Source of the DNA: Gammaproteobacteria bacterium
Lineage (GTDB): Bacteria; Pseudomonadota; Gammaproteobacteria; JACCYU01
NCBI GenBank assembly: GCA_013696315.1
Contig: JACCYU010000092.1
Span: 1 to 60,761 of the forward strand
Length of the DNA stretch: 60,761 nucleotides
Reading direction: 5' to 3'
The position numbers were made by a program, and so were the translations under genes. Positions 4,163-22,669 of the stretch are shown piece by piece. How positions within the stretch are numbered: position 1 is the stretch's first letter; each line of letters opens with the position of its first letter. The notes beneath the pieces were generated by a model, which saw only the letters and a program-made list of their open reading frames with translations, made no database searches and was not told where the DNA came from.

Positions 4163-4272
4163 ACCGCAGGGCCGCGTAAAGCGTCTCGCGTTTCTCCGGG
4201 CCGAACCGCGATTTCGAAGTTCTTGGAGTCAACTTTGTTATCGGGCCACATTACGCTGAACCATTTGCCCCA

Positions 4273-6324
4273 TCACTCAAGCAGCGCTTTCAATAGCGCG
4301 TCCGGCGTATCCGAGTAGAACGGGATGTTGACACGCGTTGCCATATCATCGGAAAGCTCAACAAGTTGCTTGCGAGCGGAGACTGGCATCAGAACCGTAG
4401 CCGCCCCCTTCTCTACGGCTACCTCGACGATGCCAACGGCATTCGCTAACGGCTCCACCGAGCCACCGAGGTTCAATGCGCCAACCACGATCAGGCCACC
4501 TTTCATGCTCTTTTCTAACAGCCCGCTGCAAAGAGCCATCAATGCCGGCAGACCAAGAGCAGTCCCGGTACGGTCGTTGTCTATCGCGCGCAGCTGTACG
4601 GAGAACTCATGCGAACGCGGATCCCTATCCCCAACCAGTTCCTTTGCCCGCGTGTACAGGTTCTGCTCGGCGTAACGCACGCTCTCGCGGAACGCCGGCG
4701 GGACCGGGGCGTTCAGTATCTTGACGCCGCTACCCCGGCCGACGGTGGCCTCAATGCGGTAGAGGCTGGCGCCCGTCTCCAGGCCGCCCGGACTGATGCC
4801 CCACACCTGCCCTGGCGGCAGTGGGTCGAGCTCAATGGCTTCGTCGCTGTGCAGCTCTGGGGTCGTAACGAACTTCTCGATGCCGTCTTCGCCCATTGCG
4901 TAACTGAAATGCGTGTTGCGGAACTCGCTCTTGAACACCCGCTTCTGTTGTTCCTTGACCCGGCGACGCATTTCGAGGGCAACCCGGACCATCGCCTCCA
5001 GTTCATCGTCCGGGATGACCATCTCCGGGTCTGGATAAAGCAATTTCAGTAGGCCGCTTACGGTCTTGTTGACCGCCGTGATGTCCCGTCCGCTAAGCGC
5101 CCCGCCATAGTTCACGCGGCCCTGTAGCGCGGGAGTCCGACTGCCCGTCCGCAGCCGACTCCAGCACTCGGACAGAAAGTCACTGACCAAACCGAAGTGG
5201 TCCGTGAAGTGCTCGTTCGGACTCAACTTCGGGAAGTCCCACCCCGGCACATAGGCATGAATGCGGTCCATGAAAGCCGTGTCGTCCCGCATCTCTGGGG
5301 GTAGCGGGCTTAGGAGGTGCCCAAACCGCTGCTGGTGCGAGACCTCCACATTGAGGTTGCCGACCATGACGATACCCTCGGCCCTGATGCTCTCCTTGCC
5401 ACGGGAGAACTCCCCGGATTCCATGTATCCCTTGAGGATGTTCACGCCATCTTTCTGATCAAATGACACGCCCGAGATTTCATCGAAGCAGACCACGTCG
5501 TACTGGCAAACCAAGCCGCGTTGTCCTGTTCCCATATGAACGAACATCTTGGCCACCGTCGCCTTGCCGCCCGAAATCAGATGGGCGTAGGGAGAAATCT
5601 GCTGGAACAGGTGACTCTTCCCCGTCCCGCGGGGACCCAGCTCGACCATGTTGTAGTTCCGTTCTACGAACGGCACCATCCGGACAAGCGCCACCAACTG
5701 CGCCCGCTCCGAGAGCGCAGCTGGCTCGAGCCCAACGCTGCGGAGCAGAACACTTTTCCATTCTTCGCTGGTGAAGTCGTGTCGTCCGCGTTTGAGCGTA
5801 TCCAGTACATCGGCCTTGGACAGCTGAATGGCTCGAAGGCTGTCGATTGCGAAAGGACGGCCCCCTTTCTCTTGTGCGATGGCAGCGTCGTAGCTCAGCG
5901 TGACTTCGGCATAAAAGCCATCAGTGAGCATGCGCTCATGCTGCTTGACCAGACTGTCGTCGATGCGAACGTCTTTGATTGCGAGACTGGGGAGTTCGGC
6001 GACGAACGAGTCCGTCTTGGCGTCAAGCTTCGCTCTGACAATATCGATGAGCTTGATCGAGCCCAGGTCGCGGGCTCTCGCCTTGAAGAGCTCCACTTCG
6101 CCCGTTCTCACTGTCCGGTCAGCCAGCTGACGTTCGACGATCGTCAGCCCTTCCTCGATCTCCTGCTCGTCCGTGCTCGCGCAGTACCGCCCGAGAAGAA
6201 ACTCGACCACATACGTCGGCACCGGATACTGGCGGCTGTACTTGCGCACCAGGTCCTTACGTACCAGGTAGCCTTCAAACGCCGTCGCCGCCAAGCGATC
6301 GAGTTGATCGAGTACCACTTTCAA
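4273..6324 (-). CDS. brxL: BREX system Lon-protease-like ATPase BrxL
   Basis: 683 aa. Features: N-terminus FEGYLVRKDLVRKYSRQYPVPTYVVEFLLGRY, Walker A GPRGTGKSH, and a C-terminal Lon-like domain. Last gene of the canonical BREX-1 order. TTG start overlaps the pglZ stop (TTGA). Confidence 0.9.
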   Translation of the reverse strand: MKVVLDQLDRLAATAFEGYLVRKDLVRKYSRQYPVPTYVVEFLLGRYCASTDEQEIEEGLTIVERQLADRTVRTGEVELFKARARDLGSIKLIDIVRAKLDAKTDSFVAELPSLAIKDVRIDDSLVKQHERMLTDGFYAEVTLSYDAAIAQEKGGRPFAIDSLRAIQLSKADVLDTLKRGRHDFTSEEWKSVLLRSVGLEPAALSERAQLVALVRMVPFVERNYNMVELGPRGTGKSHLFQQISPYAHLISGGKATVAKMFVHMGTGQRGLVCQYDVVCFDEISGVSFDQKDGVNILKGYMESGEFSRGKESIRAEGIVMVGNLNVEVSHQQRFGHLLSPLPPEMRDDTAFMDRIHAYVPGWDFPKLSPNEHFTDHFGLVSDFLSECWSRLRTGSRTPALQGRVNYGGALSGRDITAVNKTVSGLLKLLYPDPEMVIPDDELEAMVRVALEMRRRVKEQQKRVFKSEFRNTHFSYAMGEDGIEKFVTTPELHSDEAIELDPLPPGQVWGISPGGLETGASLYRIEATVGRGSGVKILNAPVPPAFRESVRYAEQNLYTRAKELVGDRDPRSHEFSVQLRAIDNDRTGTALGLPALMALCSGLLEKSMKGGLIVVGALNLGGSVEPLANAVGIVEVAVEKGAATVLMPVSARKQLVELSDDMATRVNIPFYSDTPDALLKALLE

Positions 6325-8702
6325 TCCTCACCCCCGATGATCGTGGGTTGTTTAGTAATCACGTGGCCGCTTGCATCGAGCACGACCACGACAGCCGGCG
6401 TACCTGCAAGCTCGTCATCAGCAACCAGAAGGCTTGCCGCACCTTTGGCATCCACTGGTCGCACGTTGCTGACGCTCGAGCCCGGGTCGTTGACCTTCGT
6501 TCGCAGATCGACGGACAGCCCAGGCTGAGCGGACTCAATCTGCACCCTGCAGCGCAGGCCGGCCCAGGAGACGCCAGCCACCTTCGCTGCCGTCTTGGGA
6601 GTACTCGCGCCAGCGGTGACCCGGATGACGGGCACGAGACTCTCCTGCAGACTCAAGCCCCCGTGGGTGTATTCGTTACCCGCACAGAAACACGCGATAC
6701 CGGGCGCAACGGCTACACGTTCGTGCGCATTCCAGTGCCACCGCACGGTCGGTACCCCGACTTTCGATCCGCCCTTGATCGCGGCGCAGCGCGCCCACCG
6801 GCTCGCCGTGAGATATTTCGGGAGATCGACCTTGGGCAGCCCACCTGGAAGCCACAGCCAGCCGTGGTCCGTCACCACGCGGATTTCACGCCACCCGGCA
6901 TCCAGAAGGGATTCGATGCGTTCGAGCAGTAAGTCAACCTGGTCTTCAATTCGACCGGCGAGTTTCCCTTGCAATGAGTGGCCCAGCTTGTCGAGTTCCT
7001 CGTTCTCGGTCCAACCTCGACCCGATGGGTCGCCCGTCTCATCCACCCCAACATACTGATAGCCCGCCGCAGACAGCAGCTTGCGGAACCGATCCGTGGT
7101 CAGCGGTTGTTCAGTGTCTGCCGTCGCGGGCAGAAAATCCTCGCCGAGGGATAATCCCTTGATGTCCTCTGCCACCGGAGACACTGCCGGTTTCGCAGTT
7201 GCCGTGACCGTCGGCAGGCCGGCCCAGCGGGTTGACATCATCACGGACCAGCCCTTCGCCCGCATGCGCTCCGCCAGGCCTTGCGAAACGTCTAAGCGGA
7301 GCCCATCCGCGAACTGGATCATCCCGCCGGATTCGACTTGTACATCCTCCATCCCCTGCCCATCGTAACCAGGAAGGGGTTCCTTTTCGGCCAACTCTTG
7401 CAGGTGCTCAGCCGCCGACTCCAGCCAGGGACGGTATATGGCGTTCAACGCCTTGCTTAGAGCCTGGGCGTCAGCGGACCATTTCACCGCGGCCATCGTG
7501 GAAAGCGCCGCAGCGTCCGCCTCCCATGCCGCATCGACATACAGCTTGGCCATATCGGCCGCTGTTGCACCGCCGAGTTTGCTCGACGTGCGCGCAGCGA
7601 GCACCGCCAAGTGCGCGAGGGCGTTCGCCAACGGCGCCTGATCGAGCCTCGCCCAGACCCAGCCACGTCTCAGACCGTGGGTCTTCTCCAGCGAAAGAAT
7701 CTGCGCGCGCGCGGCCGCTGGCGATTTTTTCTCGAGGTCAAGGAGAGCTTGTCGGAGACTCGCCTCCGCTTCCTCGTTGCGCTGCGGCCAAGGTGAAGGA
7801 TCGGAGAGTAGATCCGTCTGAAAGGGCATGGCCTTACGCAACAACTCCGGCACGCCCGGGTACAACGTCGGCGATTCGGCAAAACGCTCCCACACGCGCC
7901 CCCACGGGCCCGCCCTCTGTCCGAGCAGCTCAGCTGCTACCAGCTCGCCATCCTTGTCCGGATCAAACTTGAGGTCCGCCTTGCAACGCGACTTGAAAGC
8001 GCTCCAGCGTCCGCTGTTCCAACCGGACTTCACCGCGTCCGGGTCGCTCAGCCAGAGCAGCAAGTCTTTTGCGGGGTCATCGGAGAAGAGCTTATCGAAA
8101 TCCTCTGCTTCGAGATGCTTGCCTTTGAGCCTTTCCACCGACGTCGTCGCCAGCTCGGTAAGCGCGCCCACCATCGACCGACGGGTGGCTGCATCGCGCG
8201 CCACATCCAGACCAAGCCCGCCGTCTTCGGCGACCAGGAATGCCTCGACGCTCCAGTCCTTGCCGTTCTTCTGGGTCCAGCACACACCTCGGTATTGAAG
8301 CTCCACCAGCGGCTTGAGGCTATCCGGGCACTCCTGGACGGCCCTGAGTTCCTGCCGGCTGACCCCGGGCAGGTAGATAATCGGTATTGTTCCCTCTTGG
8401 ATCGCGACGTCTGGGAGCGCACGGTCGACCACGCTGCGTAACCAGATCGCCGGGCCGATGCGCTGCTCAGGCTGGTACTCCCCAAACGTCAGAAGCTGTG
8501 GCAGCAGCCGCCGAAGCTGGGGAACGACTGGCTGCCATTGAGCATCTTGATCCGTCCACAAGACGGCGTACGGATGCACAACATCGTTCGGGTTGTACCT
8601 CACTGCACCCTCCAGCGAGCGAACCAAAGACTCAACGACGGTAATACTCGAGTGGACTGCTTGGGTTCTCACCGTATCGCCTTCTTCACGATACACCTGC
8701 AA
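6321..8702 (-). CDS. pglZ: BREX-1 alkaline-phosphatase-superfamily protein PglZ
   Basis: 793 aa with N-terminal YAVLWTDQDAQW and the PglZ core IRVVTDHGWLWLPGG. Sits directly upstream of brxL. Start is uncertain: TTG 8702, GTG 8696 or a later GTG. Confidence 0.9.
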   Translation of the reverse strand: MQVYREEGDTVRTQAVHSSITVVESLVRSLEGAVRYNPNDVVHPYAVLWTDQDAQWQPVVPQLRRLLPQLLTFGEYQPEQRIGPAIWLRSVVDRALPDVAIQEGTIPIIYLPGVSRQELRAVQECPDSLKPLVELQYRGVCWTQKNGKDWSVEAFLVAEDGGLGLDVARDAATRRSMVGALTELATTSVERLKGKHLEAEDFDKLFSDDPAKDLLLWLSDPDAVKSGWNSGRWSAFKSRCKADLKFDPDKDGELVAAELLGQRAGPWGRVWERFAESPTLYPGVPELLRKAMPFQTDLLSDPSPWPQRNEEAEASLRQALLDLEKKSPAAARAQILSLEKTHGLRRGWVWARLDQAPLANALAHLAVLAARTSSKLGGATAADMAKLYVDAAWEADAAALSTMAAVKWSADAQALSKALNAIYRPWLESAAEHLQELAEKEPLPGYDGQGMEDVQVESGGMIQFADGLRLDVSQGLAERMRAKGWSVMMSTRWAGLPTVTATAKPAVSPVAEDIKGLSLGEDFLPATADTEQPLTTDRFRKLLSAAGYQYVGVDETGDPSGRGWTENEELDKLGHSLQGKLAGRIEDQVDLLLERIESLLDAGWREIRVVTDHGWLWLPGGLPKVDLPKYLTASRWARCAAIKGGSKVGVPTVRWHWNAHERVAVAPGIACFCAGNEYTHGGLSLQESLVPVIRVTAGASTPKTAAKVAGVSWAGLRCRVQIESAQPGLSVDLRTKVNDPGSSVSNVRPVDAKGAASLLVADDELAGTPAVVVVLDASGHVITKQPTIIGGED

Positions 8703-9948
8703 CGTAAATCGTCAGCATGAGTTCCGATTCGTCGACCAGACGGTATTCCGGGGCTTTTCCTGACAGTTGTTCGCTGCGAGACAAGATGATCGGCACACCT
8801 TCACCGCGTTTGTCCATGATGTGGGAGCGATGAGCTGCAAACTCGTCTCCCTCAACCGGACAGCGCGCGAGTAGACTAGTAATGGCTTCGTTACGGGCGG
8901 CTTGCCGATAAGGCAGGCTCTCAGGCGTCATGGTGTTGGCAAGTAGTCCCAGCGTGTACAGCTCCAGCCTGTCGTCGAACAACCGCAGGCGCACCTTGCT
9001 GCCCGCCATCGAATAGTCGCGATGCGCGACGGCGTTGGTCACCGCCTCGAAGACGGCGAGCATGTCGTACTGCGGCAAGTCCTCGCGCCCGCCCTCCGCG
9101 CGCTTTCGAGCCGCACTCTGCATATTCTTTCGCACGAAGTCGCAAGCATCGAAGATCTGGTGGTCCAGTGAACCTGTAATGTTTCGGGCATCGCGCTGAT
9201 AAGCCGACTCGATTTGCGGTGCAATCACTGACCCCCGGTAGGCCACGGCCTGAACGAAGGCGCCGGGCAGGAACCGCTCGGGTTCCCGGCAAGCCATGAG
9301 CACTCCGGCCACGGTGGGCCGCCACACGTCAGCATCATCTTGCGAAGCCATTGCCAACTTGGCGAGCAGCTGTTCGGGCGCGTCGGTCGAGCGCAGCGTG
9401 CCGAAGCGACGCCACAATGGCTCTTCGAGATCGGCAAGCGTCGCCCGCGGCACCGGCGTTTCATCAAAACGAATCAGACGGGCTTGGCTGCGCTGCTGGA
9501 AAAGTCGCGCCAGTTGATCGGGTGGTATAGGTCGCTTCGATGATCCAACCCGATGACAATATCCCGCCGGACTTTGGTGCACGAACAGACTGGGCGGCAC
9601 TTCGATGCGTATTACAGGCTGCTCCGTCCCTCCGCTGTCTGGCAGCGTAAGCCGCTCGATCACCGGTGCCGCAGGCGGCTTGATCGAGTCCTCGCACGCC
9701 TGGCGCACCATCGTTTCCACGGCATCAAGCCGATCGACGGGAATGCCCAGTACCTCGCGCGTTTTGTCATGCACCCCCAATACCAACACGCCGCCGCGGC
9801 TGTTGGCGAAGGCAGCCAGCCGATCGGCAAGGTCGTTCTGTCCAGGGCCACGAATCTTACCGCTGGCAAAACGCACCTCCTTCAGTTCCAGGAAACTGTC
9901 TTCGCCCAGTCGAATCTTTTCGAGCAGTTCGCTGCGTGTCGCGAACAT
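8686..9948 (-). CDS. AlbA_2 (Schlafen-like, 'divergent AAA_4') + HATPase_c_4 domain protein, BREX-embedded
   Basis: 420 aa. The N-terminus ESxFLELKEV...LADRLAAFANSRGGVLVLGV is typical of the AlbA_2/Schlafen-type DNA/RNA-binding domain. The C-terminal EAVTNAVAHRDY motif is typical of HATPase_c_4. The ATG lies 1 nt after the upstream stop, with a GGGAGG SD inside the upstream gene. Confidence 0.75.
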   Translation of the reverse strand: MFATRSELLEKIRLGEDSFLELKEVRFASGKIRGPGQNDLADRLAAFANSRGGVLVLGVHDKTREVLGIPVDRLDAVETMVRQACEDSIKPPAAPVIERLTLPDSGGTEQPVIRIEVPPSLFVHQSPAGYCHRVGSSKRPIPPDQLARLFQQRSQARLIRFDETPVPRATLADLEEPLWRRFGTLRSTDAPEQLLAKLAMASQDDADVWRPTVAGVLMACREPERFLPGAFVQAVAYRGSVIAPQIESAYQRDARNITGSLDHQIFDACDFVRKNMQSAARKRAEGGREDLPQYDMLAVFEAVTNAVAHRDYSMAGSKVRLRLFDDRLELYTLGLLANTMTPESLPYRQAARNEAITSLLARCPVEGDEFAAHRSHIMDKRGEGVPIILSRSEQLSGKAPEYRLVDESELMLTIYVAGVS

Positions 9949-9949
9949 G

Positions 9950-12747
9950 TCAGACCTCCCGCCCCAATCGTGCCCAGCGGCGGGAGAACGCCTCGCGACC
10001 GCCTTCCATTACCCGACAGACTTCCTCTCGGACCGTCTTCTCTTGCAATGCACCGCGCTCGACGACTCGGCACTGGCCGCCTCGGAAATCGAAGGCATGC
10101 ACCATCTCCGGATCCCCGTTGACCACCACGTTAGGGTTATGCGTCACGATGATCAGTTGCCGGCGCTGCTTGTTCTCGCGGATCTGGCGTACAATCAGCT
10201 GATAAATCAAATGGTTGTCCAGATCGTCCTCGGGCTGGTCGAGGATCAGCGGCTCATCGCCGAACGCAAGCAGAAACGCCAGCAGGGCTGCCGAACGCTG
10301 GCCTTGCGAGCCCTGGGTAATGGCCGACCAGTCACGCCCGTCTCCCCCGCGACTGTATTCGATGCGAAGGTCGCCCTCTGGGAACCAGCAGCGGGCGTGA
10401 TCGGTAAACTCGGGTTTTTCAGCTTACGCTGGAGGTAATTCTGGAAATGCCCGCCGAAGTCAGTATCAAGCTCAATCATCCGCTGCTTGATGCTTTGCAA
10501 TACGACCTCCCGATCTGGGGCGTCCGCTAACTCGAACGCCAACCCGCCCGCAGGCTCGCCGTCATCGAACCGCAAGATGTCGTTTTCGAAGCGGTCGTCC
10601 TGCGCATCAAGCAGATCGCGCAAACTGCGCTCGATGCTGCGCGCATCGAAGCCAAATCCAACCACCTTCATACGCACGAAGTTATTGGTCTCCAACGTGG
10701 CCACTACAAATTGGGCACGCGCCTGCGTCGTGTCCCTGCGCGTGTCAAACACGCGTTGCCACTGGGCCTCGCTTTCAGCTTCCAGGCGTTCCCGATCCTG
10801 GCGTAGCTGATCGAGCTGTTTCAGTTGTGCTTCAAGATGTTGACGCTCCTGTACCAATCGCCCGAAGGCTTGCGGATCGGCGACGCCTTGTGCTGCGAGT
10901 GCGGCTTGAAGCGCCTCATAGTCGGTCTGCGCCTTGTCAGCGCGCTGGCGCCACTCTGCAAGCCGGCCGTCAGTGGCAAGCACCCGGACCTTCGCGGCGA
11001 GCGTGTCTGCGGCTCGTCCGAGCGCCTCGCGGGCCTCGCCCAATGTCCGCTCTGCCTCGACCCGCCACGCGAGGGCCTCGCGATCCCGCGTGGCATCGAA
11101 GGTGCCATCCGGCCAGTCGTCGAGCAGTAGATCTTGCGCCAAAGCCTCGATGCCCCCGGGTGTCGTTTGCAGTTGCTCAAGAGTTGTATCGATCTCCCGG
11201 CGCTGTCGAAGAGCTTGCTGGTGGGCCTTCAGCACCTCGGCGTGATGGGACTGTGCCAAGGCTTCGAGCTTGCGATTCAGGTCCGCGAGCTTGCGTTCCA
11301 GCTCCGGCCGTCCGGCTAATCTCCCGTCCAGTTCGCGCAACCTTGCTCGCTGTGAAAAAAAGGCGTTCTTCGCCTCTCTAAAGGCTCGATGCAGTTCTCC
11401 TATGTTGGCCGCTTCGTCAATCACGTCGAGCAACGCCTGCCGGCTGTCTCCAGCCATAGCCGCGATCTGCTTCTGTGAACATAACCGGATCGGGAAGCGC
11501 TCCGCATGCACCGCTTGGCTGGACGATGTTCGCCACTCGCCATCGTCGTCTTGTTCCTCGACGACCGCCCCTGGGGGGTCCCGGCGCCAGCGCAGTCGGT
11601 GCGTAAATCCCTCGCGCATCAGCGCCACGCGGATTTCAGTGTTTTCTCGCAGCGCGCCATCCCCGTCGCGCCCCTTAACTGGTTGAGAAAAACTCTTGAA
11701 CTCGCGGGAGGGCTCTGTCTCGTCTCCGAGGCGACGCAACTCATCATCTCGCTGGTACGCTAGGCGCAGAGCATGCACAATGGTCGACTTGCCCGTACCG
11801 CGTCCTCCGATCAACGCATTGTAGTAAGGCGTGAAGGCAAGCCGCTCCTGGGTGCCGTTACCCATAAAGCGTGCAGACTCGATCTCGATGCCGGTGATGA
11901 AGTGTGCCGGCGTCTGGAACCGGTCGAACTCCCCTTCGTCACTCCGCCGGATCGAGATCCCGTTGCCATCCAGAAGCGCGAGGCGCTGCCCTTCCAACGT
12001 GGGGCTCGCCATCTTGACCCAGGTATAGCCTGAGCCGGGAACGCCGTTACCCTGGAAGCTGTGACAGTCGCTACCCAACACCCGCGCCCACTTGCCACGG
12101 CATTCGTCGAATACCGTAGGGGTGAGTGAACGCAAATCACACCACTCCATCGCCAATACGTCCTTGACTTCAAACACCTGTCGAATGGTGTTGGCGTCGA
12201 GATGCGGTTGCCTGCCATTCGCAACCCGTAACAATCCCTTTTCCTTGTCGGCGTGCGCGGGTATGGCAACCCCGCCTGCGTCGAGTACTGCTTGCACCAC
12301 CTCGGCCGGACCCAAGCGGGTAACACCGTCGCTGTCGCCCTCGGTTCCTTGGTACCTGACGGTCGCCAGTAGGTCCGTGATAGTGCGGGTCGTTAATTCT
12401 GGATCAAAGATCGCGAGCAAATGGAAACCGCTGGAAACAGAAAGCTCGACGCCTGGGAATAGCGTCAACTCCCGAAATCCCTCAGGCGGCGACCCGGCAT
12501 CGTCTTGCCCCTTCATCTGGTCGTAGGCCGCCTTGAGGCCATCGACCCACGCGCCGCTGTTGTGGTCGGTGATCGCTACGCAATCGACCTCGGCGGCCAT
12601 GTAGCGCAACAACCAGTCTTCAGGTGCGACAGCACCACCGTTCTTCGCCCAGTAAGTATCGGTGGAGGCCGGTGTATGCGTATGAAAGTCGAACTTCCAC
12701 CAGCGCGATCCCGGGTAGGGCCAATCTTTTTGTGTGTGATCAGTCAT
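9950..12747 (-). pseudogene. PHP-phosphoesterase / SMC-like ABC ATPase fusion (Ppl / TrlF-like), one frameshift
   Basis: Track ORFs 10246..12747 and 9950..10210, plus my translation of the gap.
- PHP motifs: FDFHTHTPAS, ITDHN.
- Walker A: GGRGTGKST.
- Coiled coil of ~350 aa.
- After a frame change at the T5 run 10415..10419: KPEFTDHARCWFPEGDLRIEYSRGGDGRDWSAITQGSQGQRSAALLAFLLAFGDEPLILDQPEDDLDNHLIYQLI...LIIVTHNPN, giving the ABC signature, Walker B and H-loop.
- Length 2798 nt; adding 1 nt gives 933 codons. Confidence 0.75.
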
Positions 12748-15700
12748 GGCTGTTTATCCTCCGCCCGTTCGCGGGCCGCGCGTTTCTCGGCAACAGTGAG
12801 ATGCACGTCGTTGACACGCTCGCCGGTGAATTTGCCGTTGTTCCAGAACCACGCGAACTGCGCCTGGTCGCGTATAGGTTCTTTGCCGCGGTCCTTGTTC
12901 CGGTGGATGTTCGGCTTAGCGCGCAGGATGCCGGCGCCTCTCTTGGCGCCCGGAATGTCCTTGGCCATGAAGGGACGAATGTTCAACCGCACGCCGTCGT
13001 TGATGTCCGGCGCCCAGCCGATGGCTTGTTCCTCAATGGGCTTCCAGCGCACGAAAATGTCGAAAGGCGGTTCGCCCTCTATTATGGCGATGAGGCGTTT
13101 CTGCAATTCCAGCGCCGCGGCCAGGCGATCCTCCGCGCCACCTTCACCGCGCTTCACACCATCCTGCTGGCGCGCGATCCAGTCGCCGAGATAGCTGTAG
13201 GTGAGGGACTCCAGAAGGCGCCGGCCCTTGCCGTTGCCCTCGGCCAGCTTATGGTAGTTGACCAGGGCGTGGAAGCCATCGCGCTTGCGGCCATCCCAGA
13301 TGTGCCATATGAAGGGGCGGTGATGGAACAGCTTGCAGTGCTGTTCGAAGAACCGGTTGCGTAGCCAATCGTCGAGACTGTTACTGCCGGCCTCCGCAAG
13401 CAATTTCGAGAGCGTGTCGTTGCCCCATTCGTCGCCCCAGGCGGCTACCAGTAGATGCAACAAGCGCTCGTGCGCAGGTCGTTCACCACGCGCGGACGGC
13501 AGGCAGACAATACCGTCTGCATCCCCCTGATGGATCAAATCATCCGGGGCGAGCGCCGGGCAATCGGGAAAACTTGAACCGGTCTGGCGCGGCCACTGGT
13601 AGCCGAGCAACCGGGCCACGACCACCTGCAACGGCTGGCCTGAACCTTTGGGCTGCCGTTGAACAACCACTGCGTCGGGTCGCTCGAAAACGGCTTGGGC
13701 AACCCGTGCGGATACTTCTCCGCCGCCACCTTCTGCCAGTAAGCCAGGTCGAAGGGAACTTTTACGAGCGATGAATTTGTAACTTTGAGTGCTTGATCGA
13801 CACTACGCACATTCAGAGAAAACTGCGGTGATGAGCAGTAACACCAAATCGCAGCAAGGTCCGATTCCTCATTTGGGCATATCGCGCCGACATTGTCATC
13901 AAAGCGATCTCCGAGATAAAGTGTGGAGGCTAGCCCGGACATGCGGCTAACAATGATTCCTTTCTTTCCCCACACCTCTTGCCCAGTTCGCCATCGTTGA
14001 ATGGCCGTGTTAAGGTGCCTAACGCTCTGGGCGGCGGCATAAAGTTCGCCGGTGCCTTGTTGCCAAAAGACGACTTGGGATCGACCGCCATAATATTCCG
14101 ATAGACCCACGGTGCTTTGCAGATACTCCCAGTCAGGTTTGATGCTCGTGGGCTCCCAAAAAATTGGAAAAAGCGATTTCCATCTCCGGTCAACATTCCT
14201 GAAGCGAACGATGCGACTTTGTTCAGGAATGCCGAACGTATTTGGGTATCAATCACGATTCGAGCGTCGGGATTCAACAACTGATCTGCTTGCCGGGCGA
14301 TCACCGGAGGACATAAATTTTGGTCGCTAAGTCTTAATGATTTTTCGACCGGCGTCGTTGCTTCCGTCACGTCAAGCCCTGCCATCGTTGCTCCGTCGCG
14401 AGGCCGTGCAGCTGATATGACGCCCAGTTGTATATTGAAATCCCACATTGGCGTCTGAAAGCCCTTTGGCCCAAGCCGAGCGATGATATTCCACGTTTGA
14501 TACTTCAACAGAGATTTTCGAAGCGTCGAATAGATACCAAGAAACAACCAATTCTGCGGCGTGACCAATGCGGTCGTGCCGGAGTCTGGACAGAAGGTAA
14601 GGCAACGCTCCACGAAAGCTGTGGCTAAGTCGGCTTTGCTAGCGGGAAAATATTGCTCCAAGTGGTTCCTGAGGATGTCGTCCTGCTTTCGGCTACCGAG
14701 GTAAGGCACGTTGGTGGCGACGAGCGTGAACTGGCCGGCGAGAATTTCCGCCGCCTTGGCCAGGCCGCGCGCGGTCACGGCCATTTCGTGCGCGGTGTCG
14801 TCCCTGACTTCCTGCGCCAGCGCCTTTTCCAGCAGCGGCTGGAGTTCATGGAACGCGGCCACCAGCAGGTCGCCCTCGCCGGCGCGCGGGTTGATGAGGC
14901 TGCCCAGCACCGCCGCCTTGGTGAACAGCCGGTAAAGCCGCTCCATGCCGCGCTGGAGCTTCTGGTTGTCGCCGGCAATCGCGAGCCATTCGGCTTCGCG
15001 CGTGTTCGGCGCGAGACCGGAGCAGGCCAGGTTCAGCCGGCAGCGCGCAGTGGCCCACGCGCCGCCACGCGGCCAGCGCCAGGTTGAACGCGCCGATCTG
15101 CGTGCAGCGCGGGTCAAGCTCTAGCCCGAACAGGTTGTCGCGGATGACCGCCGCCACCGCTGCCTTCTCGTCCAGCTGTTCCTCCGCCATGCGCAGCGCG
15201 ACGAGCCGCTCAAACATCGCCACCACGAAATGTCCGCTGCCCATACATGGGTCGAGGCACTTGAGTTCCTTCGCCGTCTTCGGCCAGCCGTCAAACGTGC
15301 CGGCGGCGGGAGTCCACTTGCCGCCCTCACCTTGGATGAAGCGGAGATATTTCCATGGCCAGCACGGCAGCGACACGGCCTGGCGGAGTTCGTCCTCGCT
15401 CTGCGCCTTTTCGGCCAGATTGGGATTGGCGGCGAAAACCTTGCCCGCGTGCCACGCGCCGAGCGTGTTATCGAGCAAAAAGTCCACCATGTAATCCTCC
15501 GTGAACAGTTGCGTGACCGCCGGCAGTTCATCCGCGCCGATCTTGTTGCCGGCGGCGTTCACCTCATCCTTCTTCCTGGTCTGCCAGAACTGGTAAACCC
15601 AGCCGAGCGAGTCCGTCGCAGTAAAGACATCGGTCGGCAGGCCTTCAACCAGCGTTTCCAGTTTCAATCGATGCTCCCGCGCGAGCTGGACTTTGAACAC

Positions 15701-16147
15701 CGGATGGTCGGGGCGGAACACCTGCGGCAGCATCCGATTGGCAAAGCGCGCAGCCAGCGCCCATTGGTCGACGCCCTCTTTCTTCGCCAGCTCTTCACAT
15801 TCAGCCAGGGTGATGGCGACCCCCATGTCCGGTTCGATGAGCAAATCGCTCTCGGCGAGAAAGCGGGCAAAGAGCATTCCGTGCCAGTGCTCGTAGGCGC
15901 ACTCGTGCACCTGGTGATCGATGCCCTGGCTTCCCGAACGCGCATCGAGCCGGTCACCGAGCTGGCGCGCGTGGGCGCGCAACCGCCGGCGCAGGGTGCG
16001 CTGCTCCGAGCTCATATGCCCGTACGGCTCGTGGTGGTGCACGGCGAGCGCCTCCAACGCTACACGGGCGCCCGCTTCAGCCACGTCGCGCGCTTGGACA
16101 ACAGTGCGTTCGAGTTGCCTGCGAAGGTGTGGCGAGAGCGTTTCCAC
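12744..16147 (-). pseudogene. pglX: BREX-1 N6-adenine DNA methyltransferase PglX, three frameshifts
   Basis: Four overlapping pieces: 14846..16147, 13930..15117, 13535..14110 and 12744..13670.
- Motif I LDPCMGSGHF, motif IV ATNVPYLG, C-terminal LQVVVARLLGYQWP.
- Joined reading: ...FNLALAAW..ALP|LNLACSGL..., ...GNRFFQFF|WEPTSIKPDWEYLQSTVGLSEYYGG..., ...DPTQWLFNGSPK|GSGQPLQVVVARLL...
- Length 3404 nt. Removing one inserted base and restoring two deleted ones gives 3405 nt, a multiple of 3. Confidence 0.85.
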
Positions 16148-16156
16148 GATTCTGGG

Positions 16157-16445
16157 TCACTCGAATTCGGCACGCGGCAGGCCGGCCCAAGGGGTGATCG
16201 ACATCATTCGGCAAAACGCCCCCGCATTATTTTCAGGCGAATGAACTTCTGTAGGGTGGATTAAGGCGCGTAGCGCCGAATTCACAGCGGTTGGTGGATA
16301 CGCCCGCAAAACCGGCGGGCTTTATCCACCCTACATGGCTACATTGCTGGATGACCTTACCATCGTGCAGAGGCATTTTCGGGAAAACCGCGAGCCGCCA
16401 GAATTTGGCGGACATCCTGCCGGAAAGGACCCGCAACTTACGCAA
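16157..16445 (-). pseudogene. hicA: hicA (YcfA/HicA-family toxin) remnant: frame-disrupted and split by a REP-like element
   Basis: The reading begins LRKLRVLSG. The HicA-like stretch DVRQILAARGF is only seen after a 1-nt frame switch, then ...GKVIQQCSH ends exactly at the REP element. The 30 codons after the element end ...SITPWAGLPRAEFE*, resembling the AGLxxxEF HicA C-terminus. The start overlaps the hicB stop. The reconstruction is tentative. Confidence 0.4.
16250..16335. repeat. 86-bp REP/MITE-like nested palindromic element
   Basis: Terminal inverted repeats: tgtagggtggat (16250..16261) and atccaccctaca (16324..16335). Internal hairpins: ggcgc-gta-gcgcc (16265..16277), and ggtggata/gcccgc...gcgggc/tatccacc (16293..16330). 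The architecture resembles enterobacterial-type REP units. Confidence 0.6.
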
Positions 16446-16659
16446 CGGCCACCTCGACGTGGGTCACATAGACTTCGCTGTGCAGCCGCTGCTGAATCTC
16501 GGTGGCGGAAGCGGTCTCGAAAAACAGTTCCAGAGCCGCCTTGAGATTATTGCGCGCCTCGTCCACCGTCGCGCCCTCGCTGGCGACATCCACGTCCGGA
16601 CACAAGGCGACGTAGCCGTCGCCCTCCCGTTCAATGATTGCCGTTAGCTGTCTGTTCAT
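16438..16659 (-). CDS. hicB: HicB-family antitoxin (UPF0150 fold, no DNA-binding extension)
   Basis: 73 aa: LTAIIEREGDGYVALCPDVDVASEGATVDEARNNLKAALELFFE matches the HicB N-terminal domain pattern (YxAxIExExDGYVAxCPExDxASQGxTxEEAxxNLKEALELY). Confidence 0.8.
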   Translation of the reverse strand: MNRQLTAIIEREGDGYVALCPDVDVASEGATVDEARNNLKAALELFFETASATEIQQRLHSEVYVTHVEVAVA

Positions 16660-16687
16660 GGCTGTACTCCTCTGTCGTTCGATCTCA

Positions 16688-19600
16688 TCAATTGACGAAC
16701 ACAGGCCCGTGCCTGATCTGTTCGAGCAACTCCTGCTCGGTCTTCACGATCCACGCGTTGACCTCATCGGGCGTGCGGAGCGTGGCGCTGCCGAGCTTGA
16801 CGTGGTGTGTTTTGGGCTCGACGAGCTTGTCGGCCTGGATGCGCGCGTCTGCGAAGAGCTGTGGGAGTGCCGCCGTGCGCGTCCTCCATGCAGCTAGGGA
16901 AATACGCTCTAGGGATTCGAGCACTTCCTGCTCGGTGCCCGTCACGCCCTTGGTGATCTTGACGATGTGCAACTGGCCAAGGATCCGATCCCCTTCCTCT
17001 TGCCCGATCTTGTGCCAGCTCTCGGCACTTGCAAGGCGCTGCCATTCCGCCTCAAAAATTTCGGCGTAGCGCTTCTCCGCTTGCGCAAGGGCCATCCGGA
17101 GCGCATCCGCCAGCGCCTTGGTGAGGTCGGGCACTCGATCCGTCGCGTCGAGCAGGCCGCGGTTCGCCGCGATGGCCTCGATCTGTGGCTTCGCCTCCTT
17201 CGCGGCATCCAGGCTATCGACATGACGGGCCAATGACAGCAAGCGCTCGTAAGCCGGCTGGCGCTTGTCTGCCATGTCGCGAGCCTTACTCCACTCTTCG
17301 ATGTTCTTGATGAGTTCATCGTGACGGTTGAGGATGCCGAGCAGTTGCTCATTACCGGCACGCGACTGCAGATCCAATAGGTGGCTGGTATCCGGGCGTT
17401 CGGGCAGCGGGGCTTCGCCCCCGGCACGGTTAGCCAACTCGGCGAGCTTTGCGAGGAACTGGCCGGCAGCCGCCGCCTCGTCGTTCGGCTTGCAGGCAAT
17501 CCCAGCCGTCTGAAACAATTTGCGCACCTTGAGGCGCTCGCGGGTGTCGATGGTCGCGCTCTCGACGCGGAAGTCGGTACTCGACACCTTCGCCTGATCC
17601 AGCTGCCCCGGCTTCAGCGGCGTTCCGTTTGCGGTCGCGCGCAGATGCCCGGTACCAAACAGGCTGATGAGCGCTGCGTCGACCGCATCTCGCGACCACC
17701 CATAGGGCGGGCCCGAGAAATGAGAGCGCACATCCTTACCCTTTTTCCCGGATCCGACGAACGACAGCACGGCCGAGCAGACCGGATGATCTTCGGTCTT
17801 GCCGCTGTAGTCCAGCGCCTCCAGGGGATGCTCGGCGCCCTTGCGGGCCCGCTCGATGACTTTCGGCCAACGGTGGTCGTCGGCGTCCTTGAACTCATAG
17901 AAGAGCCGATCCAGAGATGCGTCGGCGGCTTCCCTCACCTTATCCAGCAGCGTTGATTCCAATCGCTCGGTACCGCCACCCTGGAACACCTTCGCCCCAT
18001 CGACGACTTCGGCCACGAGTGTCCGCAGGCTGTTGGCTGCCTCGGTTAGCCGAGTCTCCATGCCCTGACGGGCCTCGATACCTTCGGGGGTCGAGGGGAC
18101 TCCCTTGTATTCTAAAGTATCCTTCGCCGCGCTCTGGGCGGCGATGACGCGGGCCAGCGCGTCGGCGCGAGATTTGGGCACAAACACGTGGATGATGGGA
18201 CTGTCGGCCCCCGCCGCACGTGCATCGGCGACCACGCTCTTCTCGTCGGCGCCCCAGCCATCGCGTATCCAGACCGGAACCTCGTGGCCGGTTTCCTGCG
18301 GAGGTTCGGTGCCGAAGTGCAACGCGAGCTTCCTGGGCTCCTTGCACTTGCCATGCAGGAGCTTCACGGACCCCACCGCATCCTGTACCGCGGAGCCAAG
18401 GAGCTGAGCGCGTTTGCTGCTCATGCGAGTGGGATCATTGACGAGCTTGGTTTGCCGGTTGCGGAACTCGGCTTCCCATTCGCTGCTTTCCCGCGTCTGA
18501 AGACTGTACTCATCGTCCAGCTTGATCAGCGTGCCAGCGGCCACCAGCTCGTCCAGCAGCTTCGGTACCTGACCGCGCAGCGTGGCGCCGTCCTTCGCCA
18601 GATCCTTCACCAGCAGATCCGCCAATGCATCGGCGGTGGCGCGAACCCCGATGTCGGCACCCGCTTCCCGCGGGAGCTTGCGGATAAGGAACACCAGTGC
18701 GCACAGCCGCGACTTGAGGCGGCCGTCGGGAGTGCCGTCGTCCTGCGCGATGATGGTCTCGTTGACCTCGCGGAGCAGAACACCGGACTGAAGCAGGTTG
18801 GCGGAGATCTCCTCGAATAGAAAATCCGCTGGCACCACCGTACCGACTGGCTCCTCGGCGGTGCGCCGTATGGCGTCGTAGACGATACAAAGCTGCGTGC
18901 GGAGCTGTCCGGCAGTGCCCGCGCGGTCAACCGCGCGCAGAGTATGCTCCCAGAAGCGCCGGCGGACGGGCAGCAACGGATAGTCCTCGACCAGGATCGA
19001 CTTATCCTCGCCGCGGGGTCCGATCTTGGTGCTCACCAAGTGACGGTCGAGTTCCCCTGAGTTGGCTTCCAGAGTCGATCTGACGTCGTTCACTCGGTCC
19101 GGGCGCTTCGCCAGGACAACCCGCCGGGTGACCGTTTCAACATCGTTGTCGGAGAGTTCCACATTGACCGTGAACGGCCCTGGAGACGTTGAAGCGCCGG
19201 CGTGCCCGAAAGGGCGGTTTGTCCAGTACCCAGGAAGAGCAGGCGATCGCCGAACCGTTTGCTGCAGGCTTCAACCACCTCCTGAACGACGTAGGATCGG
19301 CTGGAGTCGTCTCCGATGTACTGCTGCACCTCATCGAGGATGATGACGGCGCCAGGCATCTCGCCGTTGGACGACAGCGTGTCCTGTAGCGCGTTGACGA
19401 ACTCGTCGGTGGTGATGTCCTTCGGCTTCGGGAACTGAGCACGCAATGCAGCCCTGGCGTCCTTCTCGTTGGCTGCGAAGTTCGAGTCCGCAACGAACAA
19501 GGCTTTCGTGATCAAGGGGCTGACATACAGATCATTCAGCTCACGGCGGAACTCGCGCCCTTCCGCCTCGACCGCCGCGCGCACCTGATCGTAAATATCA

Positions 19601-20130
19601 TTCTTCTTCAGCCAGAGGGAGAAGCGCGCCTGGGGGAAACTCTCGGGGAGTTCCGCGGACTTGAACACAATCCCGAGAAGCGCGAGCCGAACGCTGTCAC
19701 CGGCGCCGGCGCCGAGGGTTCCGGCCGCCGCATGCAACCCGTGGCCTCGCTTGCCCAGTGTCGAGATTTCCTTCAGCAGATCCTCGACGTCATTCGGAAG
19801 CCGAGCCAAACCGCTGGCACTGGCGCCATCTTCGGGGAAGGTGTAGTCCGTCCACAGGAAGCGCAGCATTTTGGCCAGGTGAGATTTGCCGCTGCCGAAG
19901 AATCCGCTGATCCACGCTGCCGGTTGCTCGGGGTGGCCCTGATTGCTGACGTACGAATCGAGAATGCGAACCAGGCCGCGTTGATACTCACCTTCACAGA
20001 CGAAGTACTCGAGTTCGAAGCGCAGCGTGCGGCGCTCGTCATCGCTCAGGGCGTCGGTCATGGCCGCGACGCCATTGTTGAGCAAAGTGATCTTGCTGGG
20101 ATCCCGCTGGTAGATATCCCGGTTTTTCAT
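16688..20130 (-). pseudogene. brxC: BREX-1 P-loop ATPase BrxC/PglY, one frameshift
   Basis: Pieces 19090..20187 and 16688..19162, with Walker A SGFFGSGKSH.
- ATG 20130 (MKNRDIYQRDP) overlaps the brxB stop as ATGA.
- The joined reading ...GTPALQRLQGR|FTVNVELSDNDVETVTRRVVLAKRP needs one extra T in cgttcacgg (plus strand aa 19173..19174).
- Length 3443 nt; adding 1 nt gives 1148 codons. Confidence 0.85.
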
Positions 20131-20696
20131 ACCTCGTACACGCCTCGATCTTCTTGCACCGTAATCGGGACTGCCAGGTAGTTCCATCCATCCCGCGCGT
20201 CCAGCAAACGATAGTTGCTGTTCTCGTACTCACCAGGGAAGAACACAACCACACGACCTCTGATATCCCGCTCGATCTCCTTCATTAACTCCGATACGCG
20301 GACGAACCCGAACAGAGAAGCGATACCATAGACCCCCACAACCGAGTTATCGTCAATGCCGGACGCCGTGAGTGCGGCACGCATCTGCCCGGCGACGTAT
20401 TCAAGAAAGGCATCGTCGAGCTTTAACTCAAGATCTTCCGGGCACTCGAAGTAACTGTCTCGGTACTCCGTATTGGCCATCCACTCCGCAAATGCCCGAG
20501 TCAGATCACACTCGCTCCAACCATGCCCTGCCTCCGCGGTCGCCAGCGCGAACAGATCTTTCCGCGCCCGCAGCCGCCGCTCGTCGGCTTTGTCGTAAAC
20601 GATGAAAATGGCACGCTGCGCGCCCGCCAGGTCCTTTTGCCACGGAAGCGCAATGTAGCTCTTGTAGCGGTCAGCCAACCTGTCGATGCGCCCCAT
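20127..20696 (-). CDS. brxB: BREX protein BrxB (DUF1788)
   Basis: 189 aa: RIDRLADRYKSYIALPWQKDLAGAQRAIFIVYDKADERRLRARKDLF is typical of BrxB. Positioned between brxA and brxC. Confidence 0.85.
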   Translation of the reverse strand: MGRIDRLADRYKSYIALPWQKDLAGAQRAIFIVYDKADERRLRARKDLFALATAEAGHGWSECDLTRAFAEWMANTEYRDSYFECPEDLELKLDDAFLEYVAGQMRAALTASGIDDNSVVGVYGIASLFGFVRVSELMKEIERDIRGRVVVFFPGEYENSNYRLLDARDGWNYLAVPITVQEDRGVYEV

Positions 20697-21510
20697 GGAT
20701 CAACTCCCGCTCCTTCTCGGTGAACATGGTCGGAAACGACACGTCAATGACCGAGCCAGATTGCTTGAAATGGAGCAGTCCAAGCCGCCTGGCATCAACC
20801 GCAACATCAATGAGCTCTTCGGGGCTGGCATCCAACATGGCAGCCCAGGGCGTCTCGAATAGCGAGCGCCCACGCCGCCCCATGGCAAAACCCAGCAACA
20901 ACGCATACGCACTTGCCGCGGGCGTTGCCTCGACGCGCTGTCTGGTCTTACGCCCGCGTCCAAGCAGATGCCCGGACTGGGTCCAAGACGACGAGGCATT
21001 GCGCACTACTTTATCCAGCGTCGCATCGTTGAGGCGATCGCCAATAGCATCGGAAAGCGCATCCTTCATCGATTGCCGTGCGAACTCGTGCCCAAACGGA
21101 GTGCCGATTATGGCCCTTGTGGTTGCTCTTAGCAGCGGGTCGCGCGCGAGAGCGAGCAGGAGCGCAAGGAGTGGGCGACTGGTTTCGTGCCTGCCCCAGA
21201 GGTCCCTCAGAACGCGGAAAAGCATGATCCGAGCATCAAGCCCATAGAGCTCAGTCAGCCTTTGGAGGGAGAGCTTGCGGGTTGCCGCTGTCCTCTTGCC
21301 CAGACAATTGTCCTCCACAACCGCATGCGCGTAGTCTTCACGGGAGGCTTCGCCGGGAGCCGCTTCCAGCAGACGCGACAGCTCGTCAAGCATGATCGTC
21401 CGACTGGTGTGAGTGCCGCGGCCACCAGAACGGAATCCCCAAAGCAAGGCGCGGTTCGGCGGGAGACCGGCTATCCCGGTTTCGAAATTCGGATCGTATA
21501 TTGCGCCCAC
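20671..21510 (-). CDS. brxA: BREX protein BrxA (DUF1819)
   Basis: 279-aa ORF, first gene of the operon, overlapping the brxB start. Helical and Leu/Ala/Arg-rich, consistent with DUF1819. The start codon is uncertain because the ORF is longer than the ~200 aa I recall as typical. Confidence 0.75.
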   Translation of the reverse strand: MGAIYDPNFETGIAGLPPNRALLWGFRSGGRGTHTSRTIMLDELSRLLEAAPGEASREDYAHAVVEDNCLGKRTAATRKLSLQRLTELYGLDARIMLFRVLRDLWGRHETSRPLLALLLALARDPLLRATTRAIIGTPFGHEFARQSMKDALSDAIGDRLNDATLDKVVRNASSSWTQSGHLLGRGRKTRQRVEATPAASAYALLLGFAMGRRGRSLFETPWAAMLDASPEELIDVAVDARRLGLLHFKQSGSVIDVSFPTMFTEKERELIHGAHRQVG

Positions 21511-21877
21511 GATCGAACACTATAGACCAATAAGAAACGTTATCAGTATTCGCCGGCAAACTAGCCGGCGGAAGACAAGAGTAACAATTGTACACATCAA
21601 CAGCTGGATTGCGGGAGAAGTGCCGGTGTATTTATGACGATTTCGCCCGCACGTACGCCCAAGCAGCATGGCATCGGCAGAGTAACTAGTCATTGCCTCA
21701 GCCCAACGGTCTCCCGATTCTCAAACAATCGCGAGCGACACAATTCAGCATACGAACAAGGCAGCATGCGCGGGGCGTCATAGCTCGCCGAGATACGAAA
21801 ATACCTCGACGCTTTGCTCTGCTCTAATGTCTATGACAGCTTGATCGGCTGACGCTTTGTGAGTATTGATCGGCGCC

Positions 21878-21890
21878 TGAATCCGATTCA
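21878..21890. promoter_or_regulatory. candidate TetR operator palindrome TGAATC-c-GATTCA
   Basis: Perfect 6+1+6 inverted repeat 21 nt upstream of the tetR-like ATG (21911), in the brxA/tetR divergent intergenic region. Confidence 0.25.
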
Positions 21891-21910
21891 TACTCCGCGC
21901 CTTCTTCACT

Positions 21911-22669
21911 ATGCGAATGCTGATGGGCACCCGGGAACGTCGCCAGCGCGAGATCGCCGAGCGTGAACAGCGCTTTCTCGATTGCGCGCGCGCTTTGATG
22001 CTGCAGGATGGTCTGCTCGGCCTGCAGATGGCGCGGGTGGCCGAGGCCTGCGATTACGCGACCGGCACGCTCTATCAGCATTTCGAATCCAAGGAAGACC
22101 TGCTGGTCGCGCTGGCCTGAGACAAGGCCGCCATCCGTGCCGAACTGTTCGAACGCGCGGCGCGCTGGCAGGCGCCGTCACGCGAACGTATTTTCGCGGT
22201 CGCGGTCGGCGACATGATTTTCGCGCGCCGCTATCCGGATTACTTTCGGCTGGCGCAGTATGTTGTTACCGAAGTGGTGTGGCGCGCGTCCTCGGCCCGG
22301 CGGCGCACGCAGGCACTGGCGGCCAGCAAACTCATCAGCGCCGCCGTGTTCGACATTTATCGGGATGCGATGGCGTCGGGCGATCTGCCGGCGCGCGGGC
22401 TCACTGTTCCCGAATTGATGGTGGGCCCGTGGACGCTCTGTCTTGGCATGCATACGCTGGTGCACGCCGAAGGCATGTTGCAGCAATACGAGGTGCGCGA
22501 TCCGTACCGCCTGCTGATGCGCAATGTTCATCACTTACTGAACGGCTATGGCTGGCGGCCGCTGTTCGACCCCGAAGATGACGCCACCCTGGATGCCTTC
22601 ATCGCCCGTGTCTGCGAAGAAGTGTTTCATGACAGCTGCGTGATGCGCGACGATGCGCCCGCGCATTGA
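21911..22669 (+). pseudogene. TetR/AcrR-family regulator interrupted by an in-frame TGA
   Basis: Track ORFs 21911..22120 and 22214..22669 are in the same frame. My translation across the gap reads ...ATGTLYQHFESKEDLLVALA*DKAAIRAELFERAARWQAPSRERIFAVAVGDMIFARRYPDYF... The N-terminal HTH is typical of TetR. The single stop is at 22118..22120. Confidence 0.8.

Follow-up and report, generated by a model that had tools for sequence, protein, structure and literature searches.

We analysed positions 1 to 60,761 of contig JACCYU010000092.1 (assembly GCA_013696315.1, Gammaproteobacteria), called the window below, whose minus strand carries a type 1 bacteriophage exclusion (BREX) operon with two additional gene pairs nested between the core genes. 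We searched the minus-strand open reading frames (ORFs) of 4273-21510 with PADLOC, Pfam and NCBIfam profiles. PADLOC hidden Markov models (HMMs) matched all six BREX-1 families, with E-values from 6.8e-78 (BrxB) down to 0, in the canonical order (Table 1). The NCBIfam profiles agree, PglZ scoring 914.1 bits on NF033450 (BREX-1 PglZ type B; cut-off 400) and BrxL, which also carries the Pfam domains BrxL_N and BrxL_ATPase, 632.6 bits on TIGR02653 (cut-off 628). BrxA aligns over residues 1-279 to its homologue at a related locus (L001) at 82% identity, and a protein identical to BrxB occurs in four other assemblies. A preliminary description of the window had already claimed all six genes in this order and on this strand, and the PADLOC search, which it proposed, bears this out. 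Its observation of overlapping junctions holds as well, since most of them are coupled: ATGA joins brxB to brxC and pglX to the TrlF-like gene that follows it, TTGA joins pglZ to brxL, and overlaps of 26 nucleotides (nt) and 11-17 nt join brxA to brxB and the TrlG-like gene to pglZ.

In gene order and orientation, in coupled junctions and in profile scores far over the cut-offs, the operon resembles type 1 BREX of the clade with PglZ type B. Most of its proteins are 78-94% identical to those of Sedimenticola selenatireducens DSM 17993 (L041), Nitrosococcus wardiae (L064) and a Joint Genome Institute (JGI) contig (L063), and the middle segments of PglX are less so (33-57%). It differs from that system in the frameshifts of brxC and pglX, which leave it non-functional as encoded, and in the two extra gene pairs inside the operon.

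Table 1. Features of the BREX-1 island and the evidence for each, listed by position in the window
Feature	Coordinates	Strand	State	Evidence
Inserted island, 18.9 kb	2964..21858	no strand		empty sites in related genomes
CitMHS-family permease gene, leftmost island gene	2964..4162	-	pseudogene	Pfam CitMHS split over frames
brxL (Lon-like protease/ATPase)	4273..6324	-	intact	PADLOC BrxL 1.1e-291, profile 4-677 of 680
pglZ (type B)	6321..8702	-	intact	PADLOC PglZ E=0, profile 3-773 of 774
trlG-like gene, 420 aa	8686..9948	-	intact	Pfam PF04326 (AlbA_2) residues 16-141, PF13749 (HATPase_c_4) 316-413
trlF-family / Ppl-like PHP exonuclease-ABC ATPase gene	9950..12747	-	pseudogene	1-nt deletion at 10415, A6 to A5
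pglX methyltransferase gene	12744..16147	-	pseudogene	2-nt deletion at ~15036, 1-nt deletions at 14162 and 13656; PADLOC up to 1.9e-171
hicA	16157..16445	-	remnant	aligns as DNA to intact HicA_toxin genes (72 aa) in L062 and L063
88-nt palindromic (REP/MITE-like) element in the hicA remnant	16249..16336	no strand		arms at 16251-16261 and 16324-16334
hicB-family antitoxin gene, 73 aa	16438..16659	-	intact	homologues named HicB family antitoxin
brxC ATPase gene	16688..20130	-	pseudogene	1-nt deletion at 19175; PADLOC E=0 for the larger ORF
brxB	20127..20696	-	intact	PADLOC BrxB 6.8e-78; Pfam BrxB
brxA	20671..21510	-	intact	PADLOC BrxA 1.5e-100, profile 11-259 of 259
Non-coding island leader	21511..21858	-		sigma-70-like site at 21546-21519

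Frameshifts in brxC, pglX and the TrlF-like gene

The preliminary description took the operon to be complete, which the reading frames contradict. In the window brxC consists of two ORFs, 19090-20187 and 16688-19162, which match positions 1-318 and 324-1145 of the PADLOC profile; pglX consists of four, 14846-16147, 13930-15117, 13535-14110 and 12744-13670, covering profile positions 1-370, 354-661, 682-831 and 827-1124, respectively. In relatives (L001, L041, L013, L039, L005, L035, L016) each gene is a single ORF, of ~1166 aa for brxC and 1124-1164 aa for pglX, and tblastn searches with intact proteins of relatives revealed one frame change in brxC and three in pglX. Base-level alignment assigns the first to a 1-nt deletion at 19175 (GG to G). 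The lesions of pglX are a 2-nt deletion at ~15036 (CCGGC[GA]TGAAC) and 1-nt deletions at 14162 and 13656, the latter shortening GGG to GG. The 2-nt deletion parts the S-adenosylmethionine-binding motif from the catalytic region, which are therefore not contiguous in any one frame: DPCMGSG lies in ORF 14846-16147, and the Eco57I/N6_Mtase match and the NVPY motif lie in ORF 13930-15117. A fifth frameshift falls between the Walker A and Walker B motifs of the TrlF-like gene, where restoring one A at 10415 yields an ORF of 932 aa, and hicA is disrupted besides. From the sequence as it stands, neither BrxC nor PglX nor the PHP-ATPase can be made, and both BREX defence and BREX methylation are predicted to be off in this lineage. 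A literature search on frameshifts or pseudogenes of BREX pglX found nothing relevant.

The lesions are real and are not sequencing errors, because separate assemblies share them, a sister strain carries different ones, and flanking and housekeeping genes are intact. Exact-protein look-ups recovered the same locus in other assemblies. One 4.6-kb contig (L049, GCA_013816115.1) is 100% identical to window 17835-22463, brxC deletion included, and a 2.3-kb contig (L046, GCA_020063825.1), whose parent assembly has over 21,000 contigs, aligns to 8459-10793 without gaps at 99.9% identity, including the deletion in the trlF-like gene. A third record (L047, GCA_051001175.1) matches the window at 99.6% identity across 20.6 kb, tetR-RND flank included, but shares only the 2-nt pglX deletion; it is open at the other four frameshift sites of the window, with an intact 932-aa trlF-like gene, and has lesions of its own: loss of 2 nt from brxC at window 17637 (also in L048) and of 5 nt and 1 nt from pglX at 15293 and 14465. 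Look-ups with BrxL, the first PglX ORF and PglZ (with translated or M-corrected starts) gave no match, and pglZ, brxL and the left border of the sister haplotype are not covered.

Between the window and L047, seven of eight indels fall within 11.4 kb of island coding sequence and none within ~8.3 kb of flanking coding sequence, the eighth being intergenic; the binomial probability of such a bias is ~0.02. The density of single-nucleotide polymorphisms (SNPs) is equal in island and flank (3.5 versus ~2.7 per kb), and the island has therefore been inherited vertically since the two strains split.

These comparisons bear on two explanations under which the operon would still be usable. Several of the lesions lie at short runs of one base (A6 to A5 at 10415, GGG to GG at 13656, GG to G at 19175), where errors often arise, and sequencing or assembly errors in an intact and functional operon might be suspected for that reason. 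The same lesions recur in other records, however, the 4.6-kb and 2.3-kb contigs among them; the lesions of the sister haplotype are not the same; neither the 2-nt nor the 5-nt deletion lies in a homopolymer; and the flanking coding sequence is free of indels, with housekeeping genes over the other 38 kb at full length (the Pfam models of fadA, fadB, holB, tmk, mltG, pabC, fabG and fabD are covered end to end). We regard such errors as a very improbable source of the frameshifts.

Reversible phase variation could also switch BREX on and off. In the Pgl system of Streptomyces, pglX is phase-variable through a G tract, and the two haplotypes compared here differ in their shifted sites. No lesion site contains a long simple repeat, though, the longest run being A6, and the 2-nt pglX deletion lies in unique sequence. 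With three lesions in pglX, multiple hits in one gene cannot revert together, and neither haplotype has an open pglX. Phase variation therefore appears extremely improbable.

Gene pairs at the two internal junctions

The brxC-pglX junction was described as holding hicB and hicA (16157..16659). Genes foreign to BREX are indeed present there, but hicA is only a remnant. Among the 7543 homologues of HicB, the best show 88-93% identity, carry the name HicB family antitoxin in NCBI or JGI records and are encoded beside a PF07927 HicA gene; the matches of the window protein to Pfam UPF0150 and HicB_lk_antitox are weak (E 0.008-0.013, below the cut-offs). No intact HicA toxin gene (PF07927) was found in the window, in which an orphan antitoxin gene remains. 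Alignment of the DNA to intact hicA genes identifies the remnant by its recognisable ends, with a 1-nt deletion at the 5' end and a middle replaced by sequence containing an 88-nt palindrome; the conceptual 29-aa HicA fragment has no Pfam match. The palindrome, with arms GTAGGGTGGAT...ATCCACCCTAC, two inner hairpins and a fold energy of -48.1 kcal/mol (z = -4.39), occurs once in the window and is absent from the intact hicA genes of L062 and L063. It looks like an insertion of the repetitive extragenic palindrome (REP) or miniature inverted-repeat transposable element (MITE) type.

In N. wardiae (L062/L064) and in L063, the closest BREX relative (87% DNA identity to window 16384-21571), hicB likewise lies between brxC and pglX and is followed by a 72-aa PF07927 HicA gene. 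HicB of L064 is 89% identical to that of the window, and the junction and the hicB-hicA order are the same; what differs is that the hicA gene of the window was destroyed by the 1-nt deletion and the inserted palindromic element. Since the same junction holds the same two genes in these relatives, hicBA was inherited with the operon and not captured here. N. wardiae combines hicBA with an empty pglX-pglZ junction, and the two slots therefore vary independently. Other relatives have HEC-01A/B or an AbiJ-like gene between brxC and pglX. The HEC-01A/HEC-01B cassette, an ABC ATPase with a ~205-aa partner, was seen there at L006 808-2585 (PADLOC scores 3.4e-191 and 7.1e-83), L037 1268-3063 and L038 1318-3116, the last two being called from ORF sizes equal to, and N-terminal sequence similar to, those of L006.

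At the pglX-pglZ junction (8686..12747) the claim of non-BREX genes stands, with the qualification that the first of them, a PHP-ATPase gene, is split at 10415. PADLOC Ppl matches its N-terminal ORF at 1.6e-81 and its C-terminal ORF at 1.8e-19. The repaired 932-aa protein scores 603 bits on NF045780 (TrlF family AAA-like ATPase; cut-off 350) over profile positions 2-944 of 944, and 493 bits on the Ppl model NF042955, below the equivalog cut-off of 1000. Its N-terminal part is a PHP domain bearing an HxH motif, and it also has ABC-type Walker A and Walker B motifs; a PDB sequence search gave only weak SMC/AriA matches for it and weak matches to the Schlafen N-domain for the TrlG-like protein. 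The two genes are tightly packed, with 1 nt between the trlF-like stop and the trlG-like start, and the end of pglX overlaps the trlF-like start codon (ATGA), which leaves no room for a trlR-type regulator gene.

One genome per species was scanned for related loci, which gave 45 loci with PglZ proteins 55-84% identical to that of the window, from Gammaproteobacteria and from metagenome-assembled genomes labelled Vicinamibacterales, Bryobacterales, Latescibacterota, Binatia and others. Conservation across the phyla represented is far higher in BrxL than in any other BREX protein (L001-L045; 78-94%, against 55-84% for PglZ and 33-57% for the middle of PglX). The pglX-pglZ junction could be measured in 37 of the 45: it was empty in four and occupied in 33, with a TrlG-like gene directly before pglZ in 30 and both genes in 22. 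Sixteen of those 22 have close versions (Ppl-like 41-72%, TrlG-like 58-86% identical) and six have distant ones (~24-27%), of which the pair of L005 matches the same profiles as that of the window. S. selenatireducens DSM 17993 has the same arrangement with intact genes. Since 22 of the 37 measurable loci, drawn from several phyla, hold it at this very junction, the pair was inherited with the operon and did not land in this island.

Some of the related loci are themselves rearranged. L012 looks like a rearranged or duplicated BREX locus: at 1-4671 it has an additional TrlF-like/TrlG-like pair (70% and 82% identity to the window proteins) and, after it, only the first 240 residues of a PglZ, and farther downstream come a further partial pglX and a complete set of cassette, pglZ and brxL. 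Extra pglX fragments (C-terminal halves or short pieces) precede the full-length gene at L025 1-1309, L028 81-1391 and L040 92-628, where brxC was not seen at the expected place; tandem pglX genes and rearranged specificity modules are both possible readings.

Given the constancy of the pair, one may ask whether it belongs to this BREX subtype as an integral subunit, perhaps as its nuclease effector. Its recurrence at one junction, the presence of a TrlG-like gene in 30 of 37, the coupling of its start and stop codons to pglX and pglZ, and the occupation of the same slot even by versions of 24-27% identity would all fit such a role. Yet L001, L004, L009, L022 and N. wardiae retain all six BREX genes around an empty junction, other cassettes hold the slot in some related loci, and the identity of the cassette does not track that of PglZ (81% versus 64% in L042, 60% versus 73% in L025), which indicates that cassettes have been exchanged between BREX loci. 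The pair is also found outside BREX. On the Burkholderia thailandensis plasmid NZ_CP068711 it stands alone beside a MobF relaxase gene, the TrlG-like protein being 63.5% identical to that of the window and its partner named TrlF by the Prokaryotic Genome Annotation Pipeline (PGAP); on the Klebsiella plasmid NZ_AP022145 the hsdR and hsdS genes of a type I restriction-modification (R-M) operon enclose it. Plasmid-encoded TrlG-like proteins adjoining a PGAP-named TrlF range from 27% to 63.5% identity to the window protein. We consider an obligate subunit unlikely; because the pair occurs both alone and within a type I R-M operon, it is best read as an autonomous embedded module.

That the junctions serve as landing pads, as the preliminary description suggested, is borne out for the clade, in which varied cassettes occupy both slots, but not for this island, in which the cargo did not land. 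The idea of embedded slots has already been published: defence systems have been described within BREX, DISARM, type I R-M or Hma operons, one example being BrxU in the pEFER BREX (Payne et al., bioRxiv 10.1101/2024.01.29.577857). The window resembles those cases in that its extra genes lie on the same strand, nested between core genes, and HEC-01 is present in relatives; it departs from those cases in that the embedded PHP-ATPase gene is itself a pseudogene. Our literature search found no description of a TrlF-family PHP-ATPase and TrlG-like pair at the pglX-pglZ junction. As a lead, the BREX-1 clade with PglZ type B usually carries this pair between pglX and pglZ, and sometimes hicBA or HEC-01 between brxC and pglX.

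Two characterized systems are informative about what an intact pair might do. In Photorhabdus laumondii the Temperature Restricting Locus trlR-trlF-trlG, after which TrlF is named, arrests growth, an effect that mutations in trlG relieve; TrlF is described there as a 'histidinol phosphatase' and TrlG as a protein with AlbA_2 and HATPase_c_4 (PMC7554251). The window has the same two-gene order, its first gene encodes a PHP AAA-like ATPase that passes the NCBIfam TrlF model, and its second protein has the architecture reported for TrlG; unlike the Photorhabdus locus, it lacks a trlR regulator and is driven from within BREX. E. coli Ppl is a PHP single-stranded DNA 3'-5' exonuclease inhibited by nucleoside triphosphates (NTPs) (PMC12904381), and acts as a single-gene anti-phage PHP exonuclease/NTPase that is activated during infection (PMC12904381, PMC11482910). 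The window protein shares with Ppl the N-terminal PHP domain with HxH followed by an ABC-type ATPase with Walker A and B, as well as the PADLOC match. It differs in staying below the equivalog cut-off and in being frameshifted, and a TrlG-like gene follows it in the window, in the 22 related loci and on plasmids, unlike the single-gene system. As a second lead, the pair links this unexplained locus of Photorhabdus to the Ppl family of anti-phage exonucleases. We speculate, and hold it to be possible though doubtful, that TrlF-like and TrlG-like proteins form a distinct two-gene, growth-arresting anti-phage module that nests by preference in methylation-based immune operons (between pglX and pglZ of type B BREX, between hsdR and hsdS of type I R-M) as a coupled back-up, and that temperature restriction in Photorhabdus would be its autoimmunity and not thermoregulation.

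The island, its insertion site and its decay

The preliminary description proposed to compare the interval between glgA and the resistance-nodulation-division (RND) efflux genes with related genomes. A metagenome scan with the RND adaptor protein recovered relatives with empty sites, whose flanks are 84-89% identical to those of the window at the DNA level. In L054 and L056 window position 2043 is joined to 21859 through ~95 nt, and in L053 and L061 position 2863 is joined to 21859 through ~218 nt. These joins, together with a conserved 19-mer at 2945-2963 that sets the left edge and the restart of homology at 21859 that sets the right, delimit an 18.9-kb island. Flanking direct repeats, which the description suggested looking for, were not found: repeat searches and pairwise alignment of the mapped ends detected no target-site duplication and no terminal, direct or inverted repeats, the best word shared by the two ends being 7 nt. 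There is no ORF for an integrase, a transposase or a WYL regulator and no tRNA in or beside the island, as the preliminary description had noted, and no Rfam match in 1-24000; the island thus lacks the integrase or transposase, tRNA target and flanking direct repeats of an integrase-borne genomic island.

The same description placed the island between a decayed permease gene and a TetR-RND locus. The permease gene is decayed, with Pfam CitMHS positions 10-113 in ORF 3556-4083 and 114-277 in ORF 3291-3926, in different frames; it is lacking from the empty sites, however, and so belongs to the island and not to the native flank. On the right, the island begins with a non-coding leader in which homology to L063 stops at 21571, and in which one sigma-70-like site was found against 0.5 expected, a weak result.

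The G+C content of the island was correctly said to resemble that of its surroundings (0.609 versus 0.604 for the rest of the window), apart from a block in pglX where it dips to 0.54 (13.5-14.5 kb). We do not take that block for separate cargo; the dip is within the range of the window, in which other 1-kb segments are as low as 0.535, and it falls where PglX is least conserved, probably in the target-recognition region. The further conclusion, that the island is old and domesticated, does not follow. In the related BREX clade G+C stays at 0.52-0.635 while host flanks range from 0.50 to 0.69; as an argument about age the G+C match is void. Relatives with closely similar flanks lack the island, and the operon is pseudogenised.

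The landing-pad model of the preliminary description has an old resident island take up hicBA and the PHP-ATPase pair in situ. The variety of cassettes at both junctions (HEC-01, AbiJ-like and others) does imply capture somewhere in the history of the clade. But the same cassettes, at 57-93% protein identity, occupy the same junctions in distant hosts, relatives 84-89% identical in the flanks have no island, and the G+C content is a property of the clade and not of the host. Capture at this site seems to us quite unlikely. Taken as a whole, the locus is very probably a horizontally acquired BREX-1 island with inherited cassettes that is now decaying.

We propose that the island was gained by horizontal transfer into a glgA-tetR intergenic hotspot, and that it would have arrived as a ten-gene mosaic, brxA-brxB-brxC-[hicB-hicA]-pglX-[trlF-like-trlG-like]-pglZ-brxL, in which both bracketed pairs would be self-contained cassettes of the kinds that recur at these two junctions throughout the clade. 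Judging from what is known of the families, an intact BREX would methylate host DNA through PglX and block the replication of unmethylated phage DNA; an intact TrlF-like protein would join a PHP 3'-5' exonuclease of the Ppl type, gated by NTPs, to an ABC ATPase and, with its Schlafen-like TrlG partner, may have provided an independent growth-arresting back-up; intact HicBA would be a type II toxin-antitoxin pair. Decay then proceeded in two steps. The 2-nt pglX deletion, the disruption of hicA and a nonsense codon in tetR (see below) came first, because they are common to the two strain haplotypes; each haplotype later acquired its own brxC and pglX frameshifts, and that of the window the trlF lesion as well. 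The island is dying in this lineage, and we regard the process as neutral decay of a defence island.

Several points weigh against this reading. Non-synonymous and synonymous differences between the window and L047 number 27 and 11 in the island against 10 and 9 in the flank; the two ratios differ in the expected direction but not significantly (Fisher p = 0.24). Some of the assemblies could come from one sample or from related ones. L048 possibly represents the reads underlying L047, and L049 matches the window without a difference along its full length; independence is certain only for L046 and L047, whose sequences differ. The inactivity of the island genes is predicted from their reading frames, and pglZ, brxL, brxA, brxB and the trlG-like gene are still intact, so that residual function of those genes is possible; five intact genes, given only five lesions, are nonetheless compatible with chance (~0.06). 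None of the 45 related BREX loci has a match to the permease fragments or to the sequences at the island ends; the permease may have come in together with BREX or before it. Finally, the likeness to the Photorhabdus proteins runs through the NCBIfam model and the plasmid partners of PGAP-named TrlF.

For annotation, the locus is a reminder that gene-presence callers of the PADLOC or DefenseFinder type may score it as BREX-1 plus Ppl, although three of the genes are dead and the call would not amount to active immunity. For biology, it offers a dated decay series within a defence island, in two strains only 0.4% apart, which fits a fast turnover of defence systems.

Three observations concern the surroundings of the island. 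To its left, in window 2044-2863, a 238-aa ORF without a family match (2100-2816, minus strand) is shared by L053 and L061 and lacking in L054 and L056, which shows that the interval between glgA and tetR varies even where no BREX island is present. To its right, the TetR-family regulator gene beside the RND pump (21881-22669) has an in-frame TGA at 22118-22120, directly after a complete TetR_N domain, and its C-terminal part continues in the same frame. The gene is called as split in the same way in L047 and L049, and in the relative L053 its C-terminal half is deleted; the RND efflux pump may be derepressed through this lesion. Farther to the right, the only indel between the window and L047 outside the island (window 27316, L047 3381) lies 6 nt upstream of a 31-aa hemP-like gene, in a 373-nt intergenic stretch in which four SNPs are clustered (10.7 per kb).

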